NCBI GenBank assembly: GCA_052034955.1
Contig: JBPOHZ010000003.1
Span: forward strand, 659 to 64,658
Direction: 5' to 3'
DNA length: 64,000 nucleotides
Source of the DNA: Candidatus Saccharimonadota bacterium
GTDB lineage: Bacteria; Patescibacteriota; Saccharimonadia; Saccharimonadales; AWTP1-31
A program made the position numbers and the translations under genes. Position 1 is the stretch's first letter. Every line of letters starts with the position of its first letter. Below the pieces are notes generated by a model. It was not told where the DNA came from. It searched no databases and was given only the letters and a program-made list of their open reading frames with translations. This document shows, in pieces, positions 47,848 to 55,845 of the stretch.

Positions 47848-47924
47848 GGGCCAGTAGCTCAGCTGGTTAGAGCACCTGCCTCTTAAGCAGGGTGTCGAGG
47901 GTTCGAGTCCCTCCTGGCCCTCCA
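47848..47924 (+). tRNA. tRNA-Lys (anticodon CTT), CCA encoded
   Basis: Hand-folded cloverleaf: acceptor GGGCCAG/CTGGCCC, D arm GCTC-AGCTGGTTA-GAGC, anticodon stem CCTGC/GCAGG with loop CT-CTT-AA, variable region GTGTC, T arm GAGGG-TTCGAGT-CCCTC, then T-CCA. Confidence 0.95.
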
Positions 47925-48092
47925 AATAAAATGCCTCAGCAAAGCTGGGGCTTTTTCTTTGGTAGAGTGGGCTAGAACCCGAGACAGCAAGAGCGAAGCG
48001 ATTGCGTGTCGAGGGTTCGGTCGACAAGCTCGCTCGCAGAAGCTTGCTTCGAGAACGGGCGCAGTCGTGAGGTTGTCCCTCCTGGCCCTCCA
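47925..48092 (+). repeat. 168-nt noncoding unit, copy A: terminator, TGGTAGAGT box, about 118-nt GC-rich segment, exact copy of the tRNA-Lys 3' end including CCA
   Basis: It is bounded by the 19-nt direct repeat GTCCCTCCTGGCCCTCCAA (47907-47925 and 48075-48093). Copy B, 501 nt downstream, differs at 2 positions. It contains two partial copies of the tRNA T-arm (GTGTCGAGGGTTCG and GTCGTGAGGTTGTCCCTCC..). Confidence 0.9.
47933..47956 (+). terminator. Hairpin plus T-run after tRNA-Lys (first part of 168-nt unit A)
   Basis: GCCTCAGC-AAA-GCTGGGGC (one G-U pair) is followed by TTTTT. Confidence 0.7.
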
Positions 48093-48139
48093 ATACGCTA
48101 ATGCTTGCAAATTCACCAAATAGTCGTAGTATTGGCATT

Positions 48140-48382
48140 ATGAATATGATAACCCCAGAATTAGATATTAGGCATGAAGGAGTGGACCTGAGCCCACCTT
48201 CGTACGATTGGTATAAATATGTGGTAGATCGTGATATTACAGAAGTCGTTAGACTTGAGGGTATGAACGACTACTTACTCGCTGAGGTAACGCTAGAAAG
48301 TCTAGAGAGATTAAGCCAAAGATATCCTGAGCATAATACTCGCTATGCAGGGGAGCTTGCACTCGCTGGCTCGGTCAACTAG
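48140..48382 (+). CDS. Cassette ORF 1, hypothetical 80-aa protein
   Basis: ATG at 48140 lies 7 nt after TAGTAT (48127-48132). The ORF-track start 48101 lies within or adjacent to the repeat. No motif recognised. Confidence 0.45.
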   Translation: MNMITPELDIRHEGVDLSPPSYDWYKYVVDRDITEVVRLEGMNDYLLAEVTLESLERLSQRYPEHNTRYAGELALAGSVN

Positions 48383-48394
48383 TTAAAGCTAATT

Positions 48395-48426
48395 TAGTTG
48401 TTATAGCTTCCACGATGGCCCTCCAA
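48395..48426 (+). repeat. Cassette-end repeat R2 (32 nt)
   Basis: TAGTTGTTATAGCTTCCACGATGGCCCTCCAA. The last 11 nt are identical to the tRNA-Lys 3' end. It starts 12 nt after the ORF stop. Confidence 0.8.
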
Positions 48427-48593
48427 ATAAAATGCCTCAGCAAAGCTGGGGCTTTTTCTTTGGCAGAGTGGGCTAGAACCCGAGACAGCAAGAGCGAAGC
48501 GATTGCGTGTCGAGGGTTCGGTCGGCAAGCTCGCTCGCAGAAGCTTGCTTCGAGAACGGGCGCAGTCGTGAGGTTGTCCCTCCTGGCCCTCCA
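48426..48593 (+). repeat. 168-nt noncoding unit, copy B
   Basis: It is identical to copy A except T>C in the putative -10 (TAGAGT>CAGAGT) and A>G (GTCGAC>GTCGGC). It ends in GTCCCTCCTGGCCCTCCA (core 48576-48594). Confidence 0.9.
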
Positions 48594-48608
48594 ATCCCGA
48601 ACATGTTT

Positions 48609-48635
48609 AAACTCCTCACTCCGAGGAGTTTTTTT
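48609..48635 (+). terminator. Inter-cassette hairpin plus T-run (module M3)
   Basis: AAACTCCTC-ACTCC-GAGGAGTTT then TTTT, followed by TTTGGTATACT (extended -10) and the ATG at 48654. Confidence 0.65.
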
Positions 48636-48653
48636 GTTTGGTATACTTATGCT

Positions 48654-49286
48654 ATGTCACATGCAAATGAAAGCGATATTCCTCGTAATGGAATGCGAGC
48701 CGAGGGTGAGCAGGACAGGCCGGAAGAGTATAAGGCTGCCAGAGATAACCTAGTAATATCGGTAAGGGGTTTGCTTGATGAGGTTGAGCGGCTCCAGGCG
48801 GATGGGCTGCCATTGGGTGAGTTCGGACTAATTTATGATACACCTGGTATCAGCAGGATAGTCCTAGAGGATCCTTTCGCAAAAGTTAGTACAGGCATAA
48901 TGGCTGAGAGAACAAAGCCTACCGGAGCCTATCTTTATCATGATTCTAAAACGGGCCAAAGAAGTTTAGTAGTGGTAAGGCCAGATAAAGTCTTAGAAAT
49001 TTTAGATAATCCAATGGAGCAACAAGTTGCCGGGCCTGAAGCTGGTTATGAAGGCGTAAGTTCTTCGATACTAACTTCTTTTAATGAGCGTCAACCAGAT
49101 GGATCGTACATTGGAGCTCAGGTGCGAGCTTCCGGAAAGTTCTCAATTAAGAAGTTTGATGGTGGGAGCGATAGTTATCATACGGGCATATCACTAACTC
49201 ATAACCCAGAGCAGATAGAGATGGTCGGAGATATGTGGACGGATATAGAGGCTCAGTTACTCAAACAACCTCCAGCACATAGCTAG
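48654..49286 (+). CDS. Cassette ORF 2, hypothetical 210-aa protein
   Basis: The ORF-track start 48507 would read through repeat unit B and the hairpin. The ATG at 48654 lies 6 nt after TGGTATACT. No motif recognised. Confidence 0.6.
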   Translation: MSHANESDIPRNGMRAEGEQDRPEEYKAARDNLVISVRGLLDEVERLQADGLPLGEFGLIYDTPGISRIVLEDPFAKVSTGIMAERTKPTGAYLYHDSKTGQRSLVVVRPDKVLEILDNPMEQQVAGPEAGYEGVSSSILTSFNERQPDGSYIGAQVRASGKFSIKKFDGGSDSYHTGISLTHNPEQIEMVGDMWTDIEAQLLKQPPAHS

Positions 49287-49311
49287 CAATTAATCCCACT
49301 GAACCATACTG

Positions 49312-49343
49312 TAGTTGCGATAAGCTCCACCATGGCCCTCCAA
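49312..49343 (+). repeat. Cassette-end repeat R4 (32 nt)
   Basis: TAGTTGCGATAAGCTCCACCATGGCCCTCCAA. Confidence 0.8.
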
Positions 49344-49369
49344 TCTGGTTATGTTAATATATTTGCAGT

Positions 49370-49507
49370 ATGTATAATTTCCTTGCGCACAGCATACCAA
49401 ACTCAGTTTTTCTTCTCGCACTACTCGCTGGTTTATTTGCATTGATTATTCGGTCTTGGAAACAGCATCAGCGTTTCAAGAATTGGAAGAAGCTGAACCA
49501 GAAGTAA
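49370..49507 (+). CDS. Cassette ORF 3, 45-aa single-TM peptide (below the ORF-track cutoff)
   Basis: MYNFLAHSIPNSVFLLALLAGLFALIIRSWKQHQRFKNWKKLNQK. TGTTAATAT ends 9 nt upstream of the ATG. Repeat R5 follows 12 nt after the stop. Confidence 0.4.
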   Translation: MYNFLAHSIPNSVFLLALLAGLFALIIRSWKQHQRFKNWKKLNQK

Positions 49508-49519
49508 CGACCGGCAATC

Positions 49520-49551
49520 TAGTTCCACTAGATTCCACTATGGCCCTATAG
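49520..49551 (+). repeat. Cassette-end repeat R5 (32 nt, diverged 3' end)
   Basis: TAGTTCCACTAGATTCCACTATGGCCCTATAG. Confidence 0.65.
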
Positions 49552-49702
49552 TTCCGGTCATATTTAAACACTTCGCCCTGAGGAGTCGTTGAGTCTAAAT
49601 ATATAGCTTACGCACTTTTTAAGCTGTGACGAATAAGAGTTTCCTGGTTGCGCAATTAACGACGTTGTGGACTTCTTGTCAGGCATTGTCTATGATGTCC
49701 TA

Positions 49703-50395
49703 ATGAGTTTAACCGTTCCGGCCCCTGCTAACATCTTTTCTCCCGAGGCTCCTCGTTCGGACGAGCTGGTTGGTGGCGCCCAATTTGATTCAACCGATTT
49801 CTTTTTATCTGATCACTGTACTCGACCTATGGCACCTTCGCAAAGTCCATGGGAAGCATTATTGCGCAAGGCATTCGCAGCTCAAATAGAGCAAAATCCT
49901 ACTATCGACATGATACATTCAACTCAACATATTAGGTACGGGCTGGTTCCTTTCAGTTCGGTATTGAGCGATAGTGACTTTGCTTTGGTTAGTGCATTTC
50001 CAATCGCAAGATCACTTCTTACCCAAGCTAGCAATACTCAGTGGAGTGGTCCTCGACCCAATACTTACGAGTCTAACTATAATGCGCTCGTTGCCTCATG
50101 GCTGTATCAAAAAGCGAATGGATCAGACCAGTTTGGCCGTGCAGCCATGTCGATTCAAGAATCGGGCATTATTGGCCCCGAGGACTCTGTGCTTGCTAGC
50201 TACATACTGGCATTGACGGTTGGATCTTGCGACGAAAGCGGTATACCGTTACATGATGGGGGATTTGGTTTTGTTGATGTTGCAAAAAAAGTACGGGAAG
50301 GAGCTATCCTAAATCGTTGGGATTTGCAGCAACACTATCCCGGTCCAAATGCAGCTGAGTTAAGTCTTATTCCAGATACATCCACGGGTTTCTAG
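49703..50395 (+). CDS. Cassette ORF 4, hypothetical 230-aa protein
   Basis: ATG at 49703 lies 6 nt after TATGAT (49691-49696). The ORF track uses the GTG at 49667. No motif recognised. Confidence 0.6.
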   Translation: MSLTVPAPANIFSPEAPRSDELVGGAQFDSTDFFLSDHCTRPMAPSQSPWEALLRKAFAAQIEQNPTIDMIHSTQHIRYGLVPFSSVLSDSDFALVSAFPIARSLLTQASNTQWSGPRPNTYESNYNALVASWLYQKANGSDQFGRAAMSIQESGIIGPEDSVLASYILALTVGSCDESGIPLHDGGFGFVDVAKKVREGAILNRWDLQQHYPGPNAAELSLIPDTSTGF

Positions 50396-50404
50396 GGTTA
50401 GCGT

Positions 50405-50437
50405 TAGTTCCAATAGCTTCCACGATGGTCCCCTTCC
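50405..50437 (+). repeat. Cassette-end repeat R6 (33 nt)
   Basis: TAGTTCCAATAGCTTCCACGATGGTCCCCTTCC. Confidence 0.7.
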
Positions 50438-50448
50438 TGAACTTTATT

Positions 50449-50473
50449 AAACTCCTCATTAAGAGGAGTTTTT
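50449..50473 (+). terminator. Inter-cassette hairpin plus T-run (module M6, homologous to M3)
   Basis: AAACTCCTC-ATTAA-GAGGAGTTT then TT, followed by TTTGGTATAAT and the ATG at 50493. Confidence 0.65.
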
Positions 50474-50492
50474 CGTTTGGTATAATCCAAGC

Positions 50493-51320
50493 ATGTTGAG
50501 CGGCGAAATAATTCATGTTGGTGAGGCTCAGGGCGGAATTTCTGCTCATGTTGAGCATGTAGAGATAGATGGCACACCATTTGTATTAAAGACAGACACT
50601 GAGTTTGATGTAAAAGGTGAAGCGTTTTTCCAAGGACAGCTCAAAGAGCTCGGGCTACCTCATGTTGAGATGTATGAGCATCCGAATCTTCGTCCGGATC
50701 AAATCCTGATGCAGCAAGTAGATGGCAAATCGTTGAATGGCCCAAATTTCACCAACCAAAATCTTTTGAAACTTGGGCAGACATTAGCAACAATCCATTC
50801 TAGAAAGTTTGACCAACTCTATGGTCTAGACGAACAGGGACGGTTGCATCCAAACGACTGGCTGGATTTTGTAGCAAATATGAAGAACCGAGCCAGTAAG
50901 ACAGCGCAACATTTTGATGGCGCTTCTAGGGCCGTGGAGCGGGCAACGCAAAAACTAAGCGTGCAGACTCCAGATACTTTTGTTATGTGTCACGGTGATT
51001 TGCACGGTAACAATGTGTTCTGTACTGATGAGGGATTGGTGCTCTTTGATAATAATGCCAGTGATATTGTCGCTACGCCACAATACGACTTGGCGGTTAT
51101 CTTTGGTGAAGTTATGCCCGGTTATCGTTACGGTGCTGAAAACGCCCAGGGTACAAGGGACTATGAGCGTATGGAAGCCTTTCTTGAAGGCTACGGCAGG
51201 CTGCCTGTAGACTTCGAAGAGACTATAGACGACTACGTTTTACTGAGGCTACTGGCTCGTTATCCAAACCAATTCGTTCCGCACCAGGATGCGACGATTG
51301 ACTTACTCATAGCCAAGTAG
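50493..51320 (+). CDS. Cassette ORF 5, APH/choline-kinase-family phosphotransferase
   Basis: Brenner motif VMCHGDLHGNNVF followed by LVLFDNN. An N-terminal nucleotide-binding lobe with a ..PFVLKTD.. lysine region. Length 275 aa. Confidence 0.8.
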   Translation: MLSGEIIHVGEAQGGISAHVEHVEIDGTPFVLKTDTEFDVKGEAFFQGQLKELGLPHVEMYEHPNLRPDQILMQQVDGKSLNGPNFTNQNLLKLGQTLATIHSRKFDQLYGLDEQGRLHPNDWLDFVANMKNRASKTAQHFDGASRAVERATQKLSVQTPDTFVMCHGDLHGNNVFCTDEGLVLFDNNASDIVATPQYDLAVIFGEVMPGYRYGAENAQGTRDYERMEAFLEGYGRLPVDFEETIDDYVLLRLLARYPNQFVPHQDATIDLLIAK

Positions 51321-51323
51321 GCT

Positions 51324-51355
51324 TAGTTGCGACAATAGCAAAGACGGTCCTTCAA
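51324..51355 (+). repeat. Cassette-end repeat R7 (32 nt, diverged)
   Basis: TAGTTGCGACAATAGCAAAGACGGTCCTTCAA. It starts 3 nt after the stop. Confidence 0.55.
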
Positions 51356-51366
51356 TTTGACTTGAA

Positions 51367-51395
51367 AACTATACCATTGTCCGGTATAGTTTTTT
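51367..51395 (+). terminator. Inter-cassette hairpin plus T-run
   Basis: AACTATACC-N7-GGTATAGTT is a perfect 9-bp stem followed by TTTT. The ATG of the next ORF is at 51397. Confidence 0.6.
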
Positions 51396-51396
51396 C

Positions 51397-51753
51397 ATGT
51401 CTGAAAGAGTTGGCGAATTAGCCTACATTATTATCGATAGTATAGACCCCGAAGGGCTTGCTTCTTTTTGGGGTTCGGTCTTAGGGCTAGAGATATCGGA
51501 GTGCTCCGAACCATATGTTGATCTTGCACCTTCTGCAGAGCACGCTCCGGTGTTAAGTTTTCAGAGAGTACCAGAGGCCAAAGAAGGGAAGAATCGGCTC
51601 CATCTTGATATTAAAGTTGGAGACCTAGATGTTGCTACCGCACAAATACAAACACTGGGCGGAAAATTAGTCCAAGAATGTGTAGAGCCACCTTATGAAT
51701 GGCGAGTGATGGCTGACCCTGAAGACAATGAGTTTTGTATAGTCACGAACTAG
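51397..51753 (+). CDS. Cassette ORF 6, VOC/glyoxalase-bleomycin-resistance-fold protein
   Basis: A 118-aa protein with LAYIIIDSIDPEGLASFWGSVLG..., RLHLDIKV and ..WRVMADPEDNEFCIV, typical of glyoxalase-like domain proteins. Confidence 0.8.
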   Translation: MSERVGELAYIIIDSIDPEGLASFWGSVLGLEISECSEPYVDLAPSAEHAPVLSFQRVPEAKEGKNRLHLDIKVGDLDVATAQIQTLGGKLVQECVEPPYEWRVMADPEDNEFCIVTN

Positions 51754-52075
51754 CTTGAAGAACAAATATTTTTCTTCGTTCCAGTAGTTCCCATGTTGGC
51801 CAATTAAATCGAATAATTGCCACATATGATGTTGACGATATTATTAAGGAAAGAAGTTCAATTATCTCCCAGACTTGGCAGAGACGATAATTACTCGCAA
51901 ACGACATAATTGACAGATATGCTTAAGTATAGTATAAATAATCTGACGTAAATGTCATGTGTTGATCCGCATATCTGTATCTGGTCGCTTGGATACGCGG
52001 GGAGCAAGTAGCGAAACCGGGATATAAATAATCTTTGTTAGTTACCATAATTTATAAAAAGTATGGAGTATTGAT

Positions 52076-52306
52076 ATGCAGAACGAATGCCCAAGACCAG
52101 TCGAAACTGGTGCTGATTCTTATGCCCAGATCACGGCTGGCGTTTTAGCAAGAGAGGTCGTCCGAAGATGCTTAGCGCCGATAAGCCCGCTTTTACAAAC
52201 AGGTTCTACACATAATACCGATGCAGAACCATTTGGTATGCCAATGAACGCAAGACGAAGGCGGTTATTTGAAGAATGGGCATCAACTAACGCCAGCGAT
52301 TCTTAG
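52076..52306 (+). CDS. Hypothetical small protein (76 aa)
   Basis: An ORF with GGAG 9 nt upstream, following a 322-nt AT-rich spacer. No motif recognised. Confidence 0.4.
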   Translation: MQNECPRPVETGADSYAQITAGVLAREVVRRCLAPISPLLQTGSTHNTDAEPFGMPMNARRRRLFEEWASTNASDS

Positions 52307-52383: not shown

Positions 52384-52677
52384 ATGCCAAGACAATATGA
52401 ACCAGAAATAATTGGATTTGTGAGCAAATCGCTGCACGATGCGTTCCATCATACCTCTAATCAAGTTGATGCTGTCGGACCTGCATACAGTTCACCCCAG
52501 AGAACATATGACCCTTCGGAAAGATTAAGTTTGGCCTGTGAACTTGTCGATGCAATACTAGAAGCTAGACTGGACTGCGGAGATAGAAACGTACTAGCGG
52601 GGGTCATAGAAACTGCTTTACAAATGGGAGAAGCGGCCGCCACCCATCGCACAAATAGACAGCTTTTTGGTCGCTAA
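52384..52677 (+). CDS. Hypothetical small protein (97 aa)
   Basis: TGGCATAAT ends 8 nt upstream of the ATG. The ORF is followed by a weak R-like motif, TCCAGAATGGCTACACCCAA (52685-52704). Confidence 0.45.
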   Translation: MPRQYEPEIIGFVSKSLHDAFHHTSNQVDAVGPAYSSPQRTYDPSERLSLACELVDAILEARLDCGDRNVLAGVIETALQMGEAAATHRTNRQLFGR

Positions 52678-55131: not shown

Positions 55132-55845
55132 ATGACTCACGAAGTAAATATCCACAACGCCCAGATCAGTATATTAAGAGATCTATTGTTTATGCCATCG
55201 GCTAGCTTTAGTGAATTACAAAAGAAAAGTCAGCTAGAATCTGATCACTTCAAATTTCACCTGAACAAGTTAGTAGAGCTTGGCTATGTGGTAAAAACCA
55301 GCTATGGCAAGTACAGCCTTACTCCCAAAGGTAAAGAGCACGCCAATAAGCTAGATACCGATACCAATACTATCGAGCGGCAGCCCAAAATTAGCGTGGC
55401 ATTAATACTTGAGCGCCAAAACGACCAAGGACAAACAGAATACTTAGCTCAGCAACGCCTAAAGAATCCCTACTTTGGTTTTTGGGGACGACTTGGTGGC
55501 AAGGTAAGGTGGGGCGAATCTTTGGCCGAAGCGGCCGCTAGAGAATTAGAAGAAGAAACTGGATTAATCGGCGAGTTCGAATTCAAGATGTTATTTCATA
55601 AGCGTGATTATGATAAAACTACCAAAGAGCTTCTAGAAGACAAGATGTTCATGATAATGAAGGCCAAATCTTTTAAAGGGGAGCTGATTGAAAGTTTCGA
55701 AGGTGGCTTTAACAAATGGATGACCCAAGAAGAATTTATGAAACAAGAAAAATCATTCGAGTCGGCCTTCCAGTTTATTGAGTTACTAGAACAAGGGGTG
55801 ACATTTATAGAGCGTGACTATTTCTACGACGACAGTGAATACTAG
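55132..55845 (+). CDS. Winged-helix (MarR/ArsR-like) domain fused to a Nudix hydrolase
   Basis: N-terminal wHTH (FSELQKKSQLESDHFKFHLNKLVELGYV). Nudix box GGKVRWGESLAEAAARELEEETGL. Confidence 0.8.
   Translation: MTHEVNIHNAQISILRDLLFMPSASFSELQKKSQLESDHFKFHLNKLVELGYVVKTSYGKYSLTPKGKEHANKLDTDTNTIERQPKISVALILERQNDQGQTEYLAQQRLKNPYFGFWGRLGGKVRWGESLAEAAARELEEETGLIGEFEFKMLFHKRDYDKTTKELLEDKMFMIMKAKSFKGELIESFEGGFNKWMTQEEFMKQEKSFESAFQFIELLEQGVTFIERDYFYDDSEY

Follow-up and report, generated by a model that had tools for sequence, protein, structure and literature searches.

The two near-identical units located downstream of the tRNA-Lys(CTT) gene in the window (the whole stretch of 64,000 nucleotides that was analysed) are probably copies of a non-autonomous, non-coding integrative module, which carries a structured body and sits at tRNA 3' ends. 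The tRNA gene is followed directly at its 3' side by unit A, then by a 333-nt stretch, and then by unit B. The repeat finder described the pair as a 180-nt repeat (47915-48094 versus 48416-48595; 99% identity, 501-nt period), which starts 10 nt earlier than the sequence-only reading had given and takes in the preceding TGGCCCTCCA. Alignment bore out that reading's count of two differences in 168 positions: 47963 T / 48464 C, located in a -10-like box, and 48024 A / 48525 G. The GC-rich segment it described is also there, the G+C content of the body being 62% compared to 41% in the upstream flank and 45% in the window, as are the terminator hairpin of each unit (47933-47951 and 48434-48452) and the second copy of the T-arm 5' half (GTGTCGAGGGTTCG, at 48006-48019 and 48507-48520). 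The insert between the T-arm halves exists too, with a measured length of 56 nt, slightly off the ~57 nt first proposed. The features of the locus are as follows.

47848-47924, + strand: tRNA-Lys(CTT), the intact target gene (ARAGORN; Rfam tRNA model, 72 bits)
47925-48092, + strand: unit A, non-coding module of 168 nt (repeat finder; covariance model R1, 135.9 bits over 47958-48092)
47933-47960, + strand: intrinsic terminator of unit A (stem-loop 47933-47951 plus T tract)
47969-47985, + strand: P1 5' strand of unit A, a degenerate inverted T-arm copy (GGGCTAGAACCCGAGAC versus the reverse complement GGGACTCGAACCCTCGAC)
47986-48007, + strand: P2 of unit A, a variable capping hairpin (a hairpin is found here in every Lys-type unit)
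48006-48019, + strand: direct copy in unit A of the tRNA variable loop and T-arm 5' half, GTGTCGAGGGTTCG (sequence match)
48008-48017, + strand: P1 3' strand of unit A, within the GTGTCGAGGGTTCG copy
48020-48069, + strand: P3/P4 hairpin of unit A (10 of the 11 P4 pairs compensatory)
48028-48060, + strand: P4 of unit A, the conserved scaffold, with CUUG tetraloop and conserved CGCA/GAG internal loop (covariation)
48076-48092, + strand: tail of unit A, TCCCTCCTGGCCCTCCA, which repeats the tRNA 3' end directly; att core (identity)
48093-48425, + strand: cassette b, an ordinary single-gene cassette with an 80-93 aa ORF, ending in TTCCACGATGGCCCTCCA (junction motifs)
48426-48593, + strand: unit B, the second copy (repeat finder; covariance model R1)
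48434-48452, + strand: terminator of unit B (terminator-like hairpin)
48470-48486, + strand: P1 5' strand of unit B
48487-48508, + strand: P2 of unit B
48529-48561, + strand: P4 of unit B
48577-48593, + strand: tail of unit B
48594-51806, + strand: cassettes d to h, the rest of the array (repeat families, junction cores)
49333-49342, 49541-49550, 50426-50435, ~51345-51354 and ~51797-51806, + strand: junction cores, decaying with distance from the tRNA

The last 17 nt of tRNA-Lys(CTT) (47908-47924) are copied without change at the end of each unit, which confirms the likeness to a tRNA-Lys 3' end noted from the letters, and its last 10 nt recur at each cassette end. The DNA from 48093 to ~51806 forms an array: at least six cassettes of one gene each (b, d to h) are present, and the two units are interspersed near the start of the array. 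TGGCCCTCCA occurs in five copies on the + strand, forming the ends of the tRNA, unit A, cassette b, unit B and the next segment; the junction cores degrade with growing distance from tRNA-Lys(CTT), and two further repeat families detected by the repeat finder mark the junctions. The junction 3' motif is TAGTTGCrATAGCnTCyACGrTGGCCCTCCA, and the 5' motif is CCGGTTATGyTTAAAC, followed by a terminator hairpin and then by a TGnTATAAT-type promoter. The cargo recognised in the window array by the Pfam scan includes an APH-like kinase and a glyoxalase-like protein. Homologues of cassette b, 81-88% identical and with the same boundaries, lie between ordinary cassettes in the loci L066-L069, indicating that this cassette is, as judged from its recurrence, independently mobile.

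Pfam scans, which covered the ORFs of the array and the larger ones elsewhere in the 64-kb window, found no recombinase, and none is encoded in the fetched flanks of the homologue loci; tyrosine recombinases were absent from the Pfam scans of the window, and the attC/intI/attI set of an integron was not recognised. The TTATGyTTAAA stretch of the 5' motif resembles a XerD arm, but the GC skew is positive across the whole locus with no switch, so that the locus is not a dif/terminus region; an Xer/dif (IMEX) site was rejected, and the stretch fits better as the A-rich flank of a bidirectional terminator. A diversity-generating retroelement, with template and variable repeats, was also rejected, as units A and B differ at two sites only and no reverse transcriptase showed up in the window.

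The units belong to a family of at least 12 copies in at least nine Saccharibacteria-type loci (70-145 bits with model R1). Pattern scans of genome and metagenome collections gave units in L002, L003, L004, L005, L009, L017 and L025, and a covariance model built from 9 units added copies missed by the patterns: a second one in L003 (7731-7868), a second one in L025 and one in L049. The two units are divergent in both L025 and L003. Two of the loci, L003 and L004, are MAGs of Saccharibacteria; the L002 contig, 2 kb long, carries the label Polynucleobacter, probably through mis-binning. The neighbouring membrane protein, used as a homologue query, gave one match. No family in Rfam (Rfam 15) matches any unit, BLAST searches with the unit as query found nothing similar in collections of phages and plasmids, pattern scans of viral contigs gave chance matches only, and no earlier description of the unit was found in the literature.

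Across the family, the units are ~145-200 nt long and contain no ORF. A hairpin plus T run, different in sequence between homologues, opens all of them; this terminator is predicted, from its position and form, to end the tRNA transcript, the insertion leaving the tRNA intact and the unit supplying the terminator. The -10-like box, which the sequence-only reading described as mutated in copy B, is present and does carry the T/C change, but the box is not conserved (TAGAGT in unit A; TTGAGC, CCGAGC, GGCAGT and others in the homologues), the promoter scan of the units called nothing at TAGAGT, and no conserved -10/-35 was found ahead of the body among the homologues.

The case for a conserved, structured body comes from covariation. 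P4 has 11 pairs, 10 of them with compensatory changes, and 97-100% of its cells are paired in the 12-unit alignment; the loop is G[CUUG]C in most copies, and the CGCA/GAG internal loop is near-invariant. In the full alignment (A3; 12 sequences in all, several closely related), 91.6% of the cells were paired compared to 75.7% in shuffles, and 12 pairs were changed on both sides. None of the shuffles matched the observed pairing or covariation score, one in 500 matched the count of double-sided pairs, and slid controls were 30-41% paired; an 11-unit alignment (A2) behaved similarly (90.9% paired). P1 is formed by the copy of the T-arm 5' half (GTCGAGGGTT) and the upstream degenerate inverted T-arm copy, paired in 87-88% of cells across the 12 units. 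Among the Lys units neither the P1 3' strand nor the tail varies, in part because both were required by the search patterns, and P1 accordingly shows no double-sided changes within these units. P2 caps P1 in every Lys-type unit despite unrelated sequences. The two arms of P1 are separated by anything from 4 to 30 nt, indicating that P1 acts as an intrastrand helix; a double-stranded site for a protein dimer was disfavoured by the same spacing.

The aligned units have 13 wobble cells of G.U type versus 2 of A.C type, which points to the + strand as the folding strand; an RNA made from the minus strand was rejected on this bias. Tandem G.A pairs are present in the structure, and the sole difference between A and B in the body turns an A-U pair into G.U in P3. 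A K-turn in the P4 internal loop was considered and rejected: the flanking pairs are Watson-Crick and covarying, and the element is not a canonical K-turn. On this comparative evidence, the body is judged to fold as a single strand of + polarity under purifying selection.

The unit of L049 follows tRNA-Arg(TCG), and shows which parts of the module depend on the target. It shares a homologous P3/P4 with the Lys units and adds further compensatory changes there; its P1 is CCGAACC-CTAG-GGTTCGG, from the tRNA-Arg T-arm; P2 is absent; and its tail (TCCCTTCGGGTGTACCA) is exactly the last 17 nt of the neighbouring tRNA-Arg. P1 and the tail have been swapped and P3/P4 kept, and the family therefore combines a conserved scaffold with parts matched to the neighbouring tRNA. 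That only P1 and the tail are target-matched suggests that the job of the unit concerns the end of the cognate tRNA gene and not translation. No further tRNA-Arg end repeats were found downstream of the L049 unit, which stands alone without an array. Lys and Arg units alike have the intact target at one end and a 17-nt repeat of its 3' end at the other, the arrangement of an element inserted at a tRNA gene.

A second sample of loci, fetched via homologues of the upstream iron-permease gene, included arrays without units. L045-47 have the same tRNA-Lys and the same synteny and no unit; the arrays of L052/53 and L054 begin directly at the tRNA with no unit, and the array of L069, one of the cassette b loci, also lacks one. 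L052 holds at least seven cassettes, with RelB/YafQ, aminoglycoside-resistance and zeta-toxin cargo. Where units occur in arrays, they are first, third or about sixth, and the rare core variant TGGACCTCCA lies on either side of the second unit of L003 (L003b). An obligatory, attI-like landing pad was considered and rejected: an initial tally had a unit at the head of 6 of 7 arrays, but it was biased, its loci having come from the unit search, and the permease-fetched loci, with their arrays lacking units, speak against it. Presence and position of the unit vary among related genomes, and the unit is an optional, accessory element.

The following mechanism is proposed. On the sequence evidence, the 17-nt tail is the att direct repeat left by site-specific insertion at the tRNA T-loop/3' end, and it regenerates a docking site, since ordinary cassettes come after the tail. 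Units and cassettes contain no recombinase, for which reason we infer mobilisation in trans, an unlinked recombinase moving both as circles in the way described for cis-mobilizable elements, which are moved in trans (PMC5704250); new insertions would land next to the tRNA. The best account of the A/B pair is that a unit recently re-inserted at the tRNA site of an array already holding one, either by itself or on a circle together with b; a simple segmental duplication does not explain the pair, because cassette b occurs once only. A double-stranded circle of 146-168 bp would be strained, a point that counts against this explanation.

What the body does is a separate question, and there is about an even chance that it is a small structured RNA, the cargo of its cassette. 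The body combines compensatory helices with a strand-specific wobble bias, as expected of a structured RNA, and the tandem G.A pairs, the CUUG loop and the conserved loop bases argue for the same reading. Against it, the body lacks a conserved or called -10/-35, and the terminator lies immediately upstream of the body and not downstream.

The lack of a conserved promoter and the terminator just upstream of the body fit better with a folded single-stranded DNA attachment site, a reading that is possible but which we consider rather doubtful. P1 would rebuild the T-arm duplex beside a single-stranded tail ending at the crossover point, and the whole would be a structured recombinase substrate; the + strand is G-rich and therefore probably the lagging-strand template, and the strand could also enter by transformation. 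Integron attC sites and the attP(+) of the CTX phage are recombination sites used as folded single strands. Further points for a DNA site are the switch of P1 and tail with the target tRNA, the 4-30 nt spacing that makes P1 necessarily intrastrand, the structure adjoining the junction, the GC skew that is positive throughout, and the P2 loop of the window units and of L009, GCGAAGC, which is a very stable DNA mini-hairpin. However, the 13 G.U-type cells and the tandem G.A pairs are more typical of RNA, and the CUUG tetraloop, like the conserved bases of the internal loop, has the look of RNA; moreover, arrays arise without units, indicating that cassette capture does not require a unit in cis, and ordinary cassette ends have no comparable hairpin.

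A broader and more speculative proposal, which we advance tentatively as an unlikely one, is that the arrays are an integron-like capture platform on Saccharibacteria tRNA 3' ends, with the unit as a re-targetable adaptor fold, of RNA or DNA, programming an unlinked recombinase. The T-arm helix and the 17-nt tail would direct the recombinase to the chosen Lys or Arg tRNA gene end. The narrower version, in which the unit is a guide or adaptor RNA, is improbable, and what probability it has overlaps with that given above to an RNA body. Here P3/P4 would bind an unlinked recombinase or nuclease, and the P1 3' strand and the 17-nt tail would base-pair with the tRNA gene's bottom strand and in this way set the place of insertion. 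A conserved scaffold whose target-matched segments switch between Lys and Arg, a tail with a length typical of guides, folding of the + strand and the absence of an integrase from the locus are in keeping with such an RNA, but arrays without any unit occur in the fetched DNA, an att repeat explains the tail equally well, the promoter is not conserved, and a guide would match the unit's own DNA too. No candidate effector is linked to the units, and no transposase, recombinase or Cas-like gene adjoins any of them.

The sequence-only reading had proposed a transcribed tRNA-like RNA, with acceptor stem, T-arm and CCA, acting as a substrate of RNase P, the CCA-adding enzyme or an aminoacyl-tRNA synthetase; we regard this as highly improbable. 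The unit has the same 3' end as tRNA-Lys, NCCA included, GGGCTAG/CTGGCCC and GAGG/CCTC are pairable in the window copies, and the minimum-free-energy fold closes with that stem. However, the Infernal check suggested with the proposal gave no match of the tRNA, tmRNA and tRNA-like models to the units (nothing at E<=10 for the window units or at E<=0.05 for the seven homologue loci), nor did any other Rfam family match, and ARAGORN detected only the true tRNAs. The acceptor-like GGGCTAG/CTGGCCC helix is not conserved beyond the copies in which it can be drawn (70.3% of cells paired compared to 67.3% in shuffles); the register of leader-tail pairing differs in every homologue, for which reason it was rejected as a conserved closing helix, and in the Arg-type unit CGGGTGT finds nothing to pair with. 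For the mini T-arm, 58.5% of cells are paired, a value equal to that of the shuffles, and the T-arm 5' half is found in P1 instead. The CAAGC/GCTTG hairpin extended by GTTC/GAAC can also form here and also lacks conservation (75% versus 73% in shuffles). In most copies the RNA would continue past the CCA into the terminator of the next cassette. The homologues and compensatory changes by which the proposal was to be judged do exist, but the changes lie in helices other than those proposed. The encoded NCCA end is explained as an att repeat, because it is common to every cassette junction; on the sequence evidence, the tRNA-like end is an insertion-site repeat and not a tRNA mimic.

The other suggestion of that reading, a recombination site or nested att scars, comes close to what is observed: the tail common to the cassette junctions and the Arg switch uphold an att repeat, although 'scar' says too little of a conserved, covarying body. 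An inert segmental duplication of nested scars with no function of its own, the least probable reading of all, would account for two copies 99% identical and 501 nt apart and for their tRNA-fragment composition, but not for homologues in at least nine loci with compensatory changes, for a scaffold common to Lys and Arg versions, for two divergent units in each of L025 and L003, or for the presence between A and B of only the independently mobile cassette b.

The integrative module resembles, in several respects, the tandem islands found at tRNA and tmRNA genes. In the ssrA islands of Dehalococcoides, insertion occurs in the T-loop, with a 20-bp repeat and a conserved motif upstream of the repeat (PMC3146451), and in the tycheposons of Prochlorococcus partial tRNAs flank the elements and newcomers push the older ones inward (bioRxiv 10.1101/2020.12.28.424599). 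The points shared with such islands are an intact target at one boundary and a 17-20-nt repeat of the 3' end, from the T-loop, at the other; each new insertion shifting the earlier elements outward; a conserved motif immediately preceding the repeat; members lacking an integrase, for which movement in trans is presumed; and elements present or absent among close relatives. Pseudo-SCC elements are also among these tandem integrative islands. The islands are multi-kb, whereas the Saccharibacteria elements are 0.15-0.9 kb with one gene or none, have no integrase nearby, and carry a separate terminator and promoter in each cassette; the unit differs further in its lack of an ORF, its covarying structure and its extra inverted and direct copies of the T-arm 5' half. 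Among tRNA-targeted non-autonomous elements, the unit is unusual in being a miniature with a covarying body and target-matched segments.

The array also recalls integron arrays: ordered small single-gene cassettes in one orientation, insertion at one array end, resistance and stress cargo (APH-like, glyoxalase-like, aminoglycoside resistance, toxin-antitoxin), and a recombination site possibly read as a folded single strand. It differs in having no intI, attI or Pc, the platform being a tRNA gene; in having a tRNA 3'-end repeat with short linear flanking motifs at the junctions in place of attC hairpins; and in cassettes that, unlike integron cassettes, have their own promoters and terminators. 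Such an integron-like array appears to be undescribed for Saccharibacteria.

With tmRNA, viral tRNA-like structures, mascRNA and YrlA, the unit shares tRNA-derived sequence and an NCCA end, and the window copies can be drawn with an acceptor-like stem; unlike these RNAs, it gives no covariance-model match, its acceptor and T-arm helices are not conserved, and its T-arm 5' half pairs with an inverted copy and not with its own 3' half. IS110 bridge RNA, TnpB omega RNA and the homing crRNA of type V-K CAST, which has tRNA-gene targets, are guide RNAs of mobile elements. Like them, the unit joins a conserved scaffold to short segments matching the insertion target, here a tRNA gene; unlike them, it has no effector gene and no conserved promoter, and its matching segment is also the insertion repeat.

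For annotation, tRNA-like ends of this kind are attachment-site repeats and should not be labelled as tRNA mimics. Saccharibacteria and other CPR bacteria have tiny genomes, in which, to our knowledge, few mobile elements have been recognised. If the unit acts in recombination, whether as RNA cofactor or as folded DNA site, it would represent a new way of choosing the target, and if it is a small RNA carried as cargo, it would represent a new CPR RNA family.

The small single-gene cassettes downstream of tRNA-Lys in the window form an integron-like array. A terminator hairpin and an extended -10 promoter belong to every one of these cassettes, as does a conserved 3' motif terminating in TGGCCCTCCA. 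No integrase gene is encoded within the 64-kb window, and the variable island appears to reach as far as a conserved NUDIX gene at 55132.

48093-51806, the cassette array
48416, 49333, 49541, 50426, ~51345 and ~51797, the array junction cores (tRNA-end repeats)
51946-52031, + strand, c-di-GMP-II-GAG riboswitch aptamer (45.5 bits, exceeding the gathering score)

The aptamer lies immediately beyond the last recognisable cassettes of the array; the small ORFs downstream of it (52076-52306 and 52384-52677) gave no Pfam match.

The sole difference between units A and B, the near-identical non-coding modules 3' of tRNA-Lys, inside the structured body (48024 in A, 48525 in B) changes an A-U pair of helix P3 to G.U, a pair that is kept on the + strand and would break on the - strand. 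One unit is also present, together with a Saccharibacteria-type tRNA-Lys array, in the 2.1-kb contig JBAXVK010000101.1 (L002), which is labelled Polynucleobacter and is therefore probably mis-binned. The T-arm of its tRNA-Lys differs (CTGGG/CCCAG), while its unit retains GAGGG..CCCTCC.

A short hairpin was found 3' of tRNA-Arg(TCG) in two other genomes:

L048, 7635-7740, hairpin region
L051, 8690-8790, hairpin region

In both, the tRNA is followed by a terminator and then by an inverted copy of its own T-arm and the conserved CCGACGCCAAGGGT, which pair with each other into the hairpin; this hairpin covaries between the loci (CCGCC/GGTGG vs CATCC/GGTTG). Helices P3/P4 and the tail (the last 17 nt of the neighbouring tRNA in the unit) are both absent from these regions, and the hairpin is possibly related to the unit, either in reduced form or as something different.

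Features in three further loci:

L054, 6171-7037, - strand, IS1595-family DDE transposase gene
L004, record positions ~3120-3000, minus strand, 18-nt duplicate of the 5' end of tRNA-Lys (GGGCCAGTAGCTCAGCTG)
L003, 7690-7700 and 7859-7868, junctions either side of the second unit

The IS1595-family gene is located a few kb downstream of a tRNA-Lys array without a unit; no other transposase was seen in the vicinity of these arrays. The GGGCCAGTAGCTCAGCTG copy sits ~113 nt upstream of the intact tRNA-Lys, and it looks as if an insertion had occurred into the tRNA D-loop with target duplication. The two L003 junctions share one rare core variant, TGGACCTCCA, which is relevant to the question of whether insertion copies the core or exchanges it.
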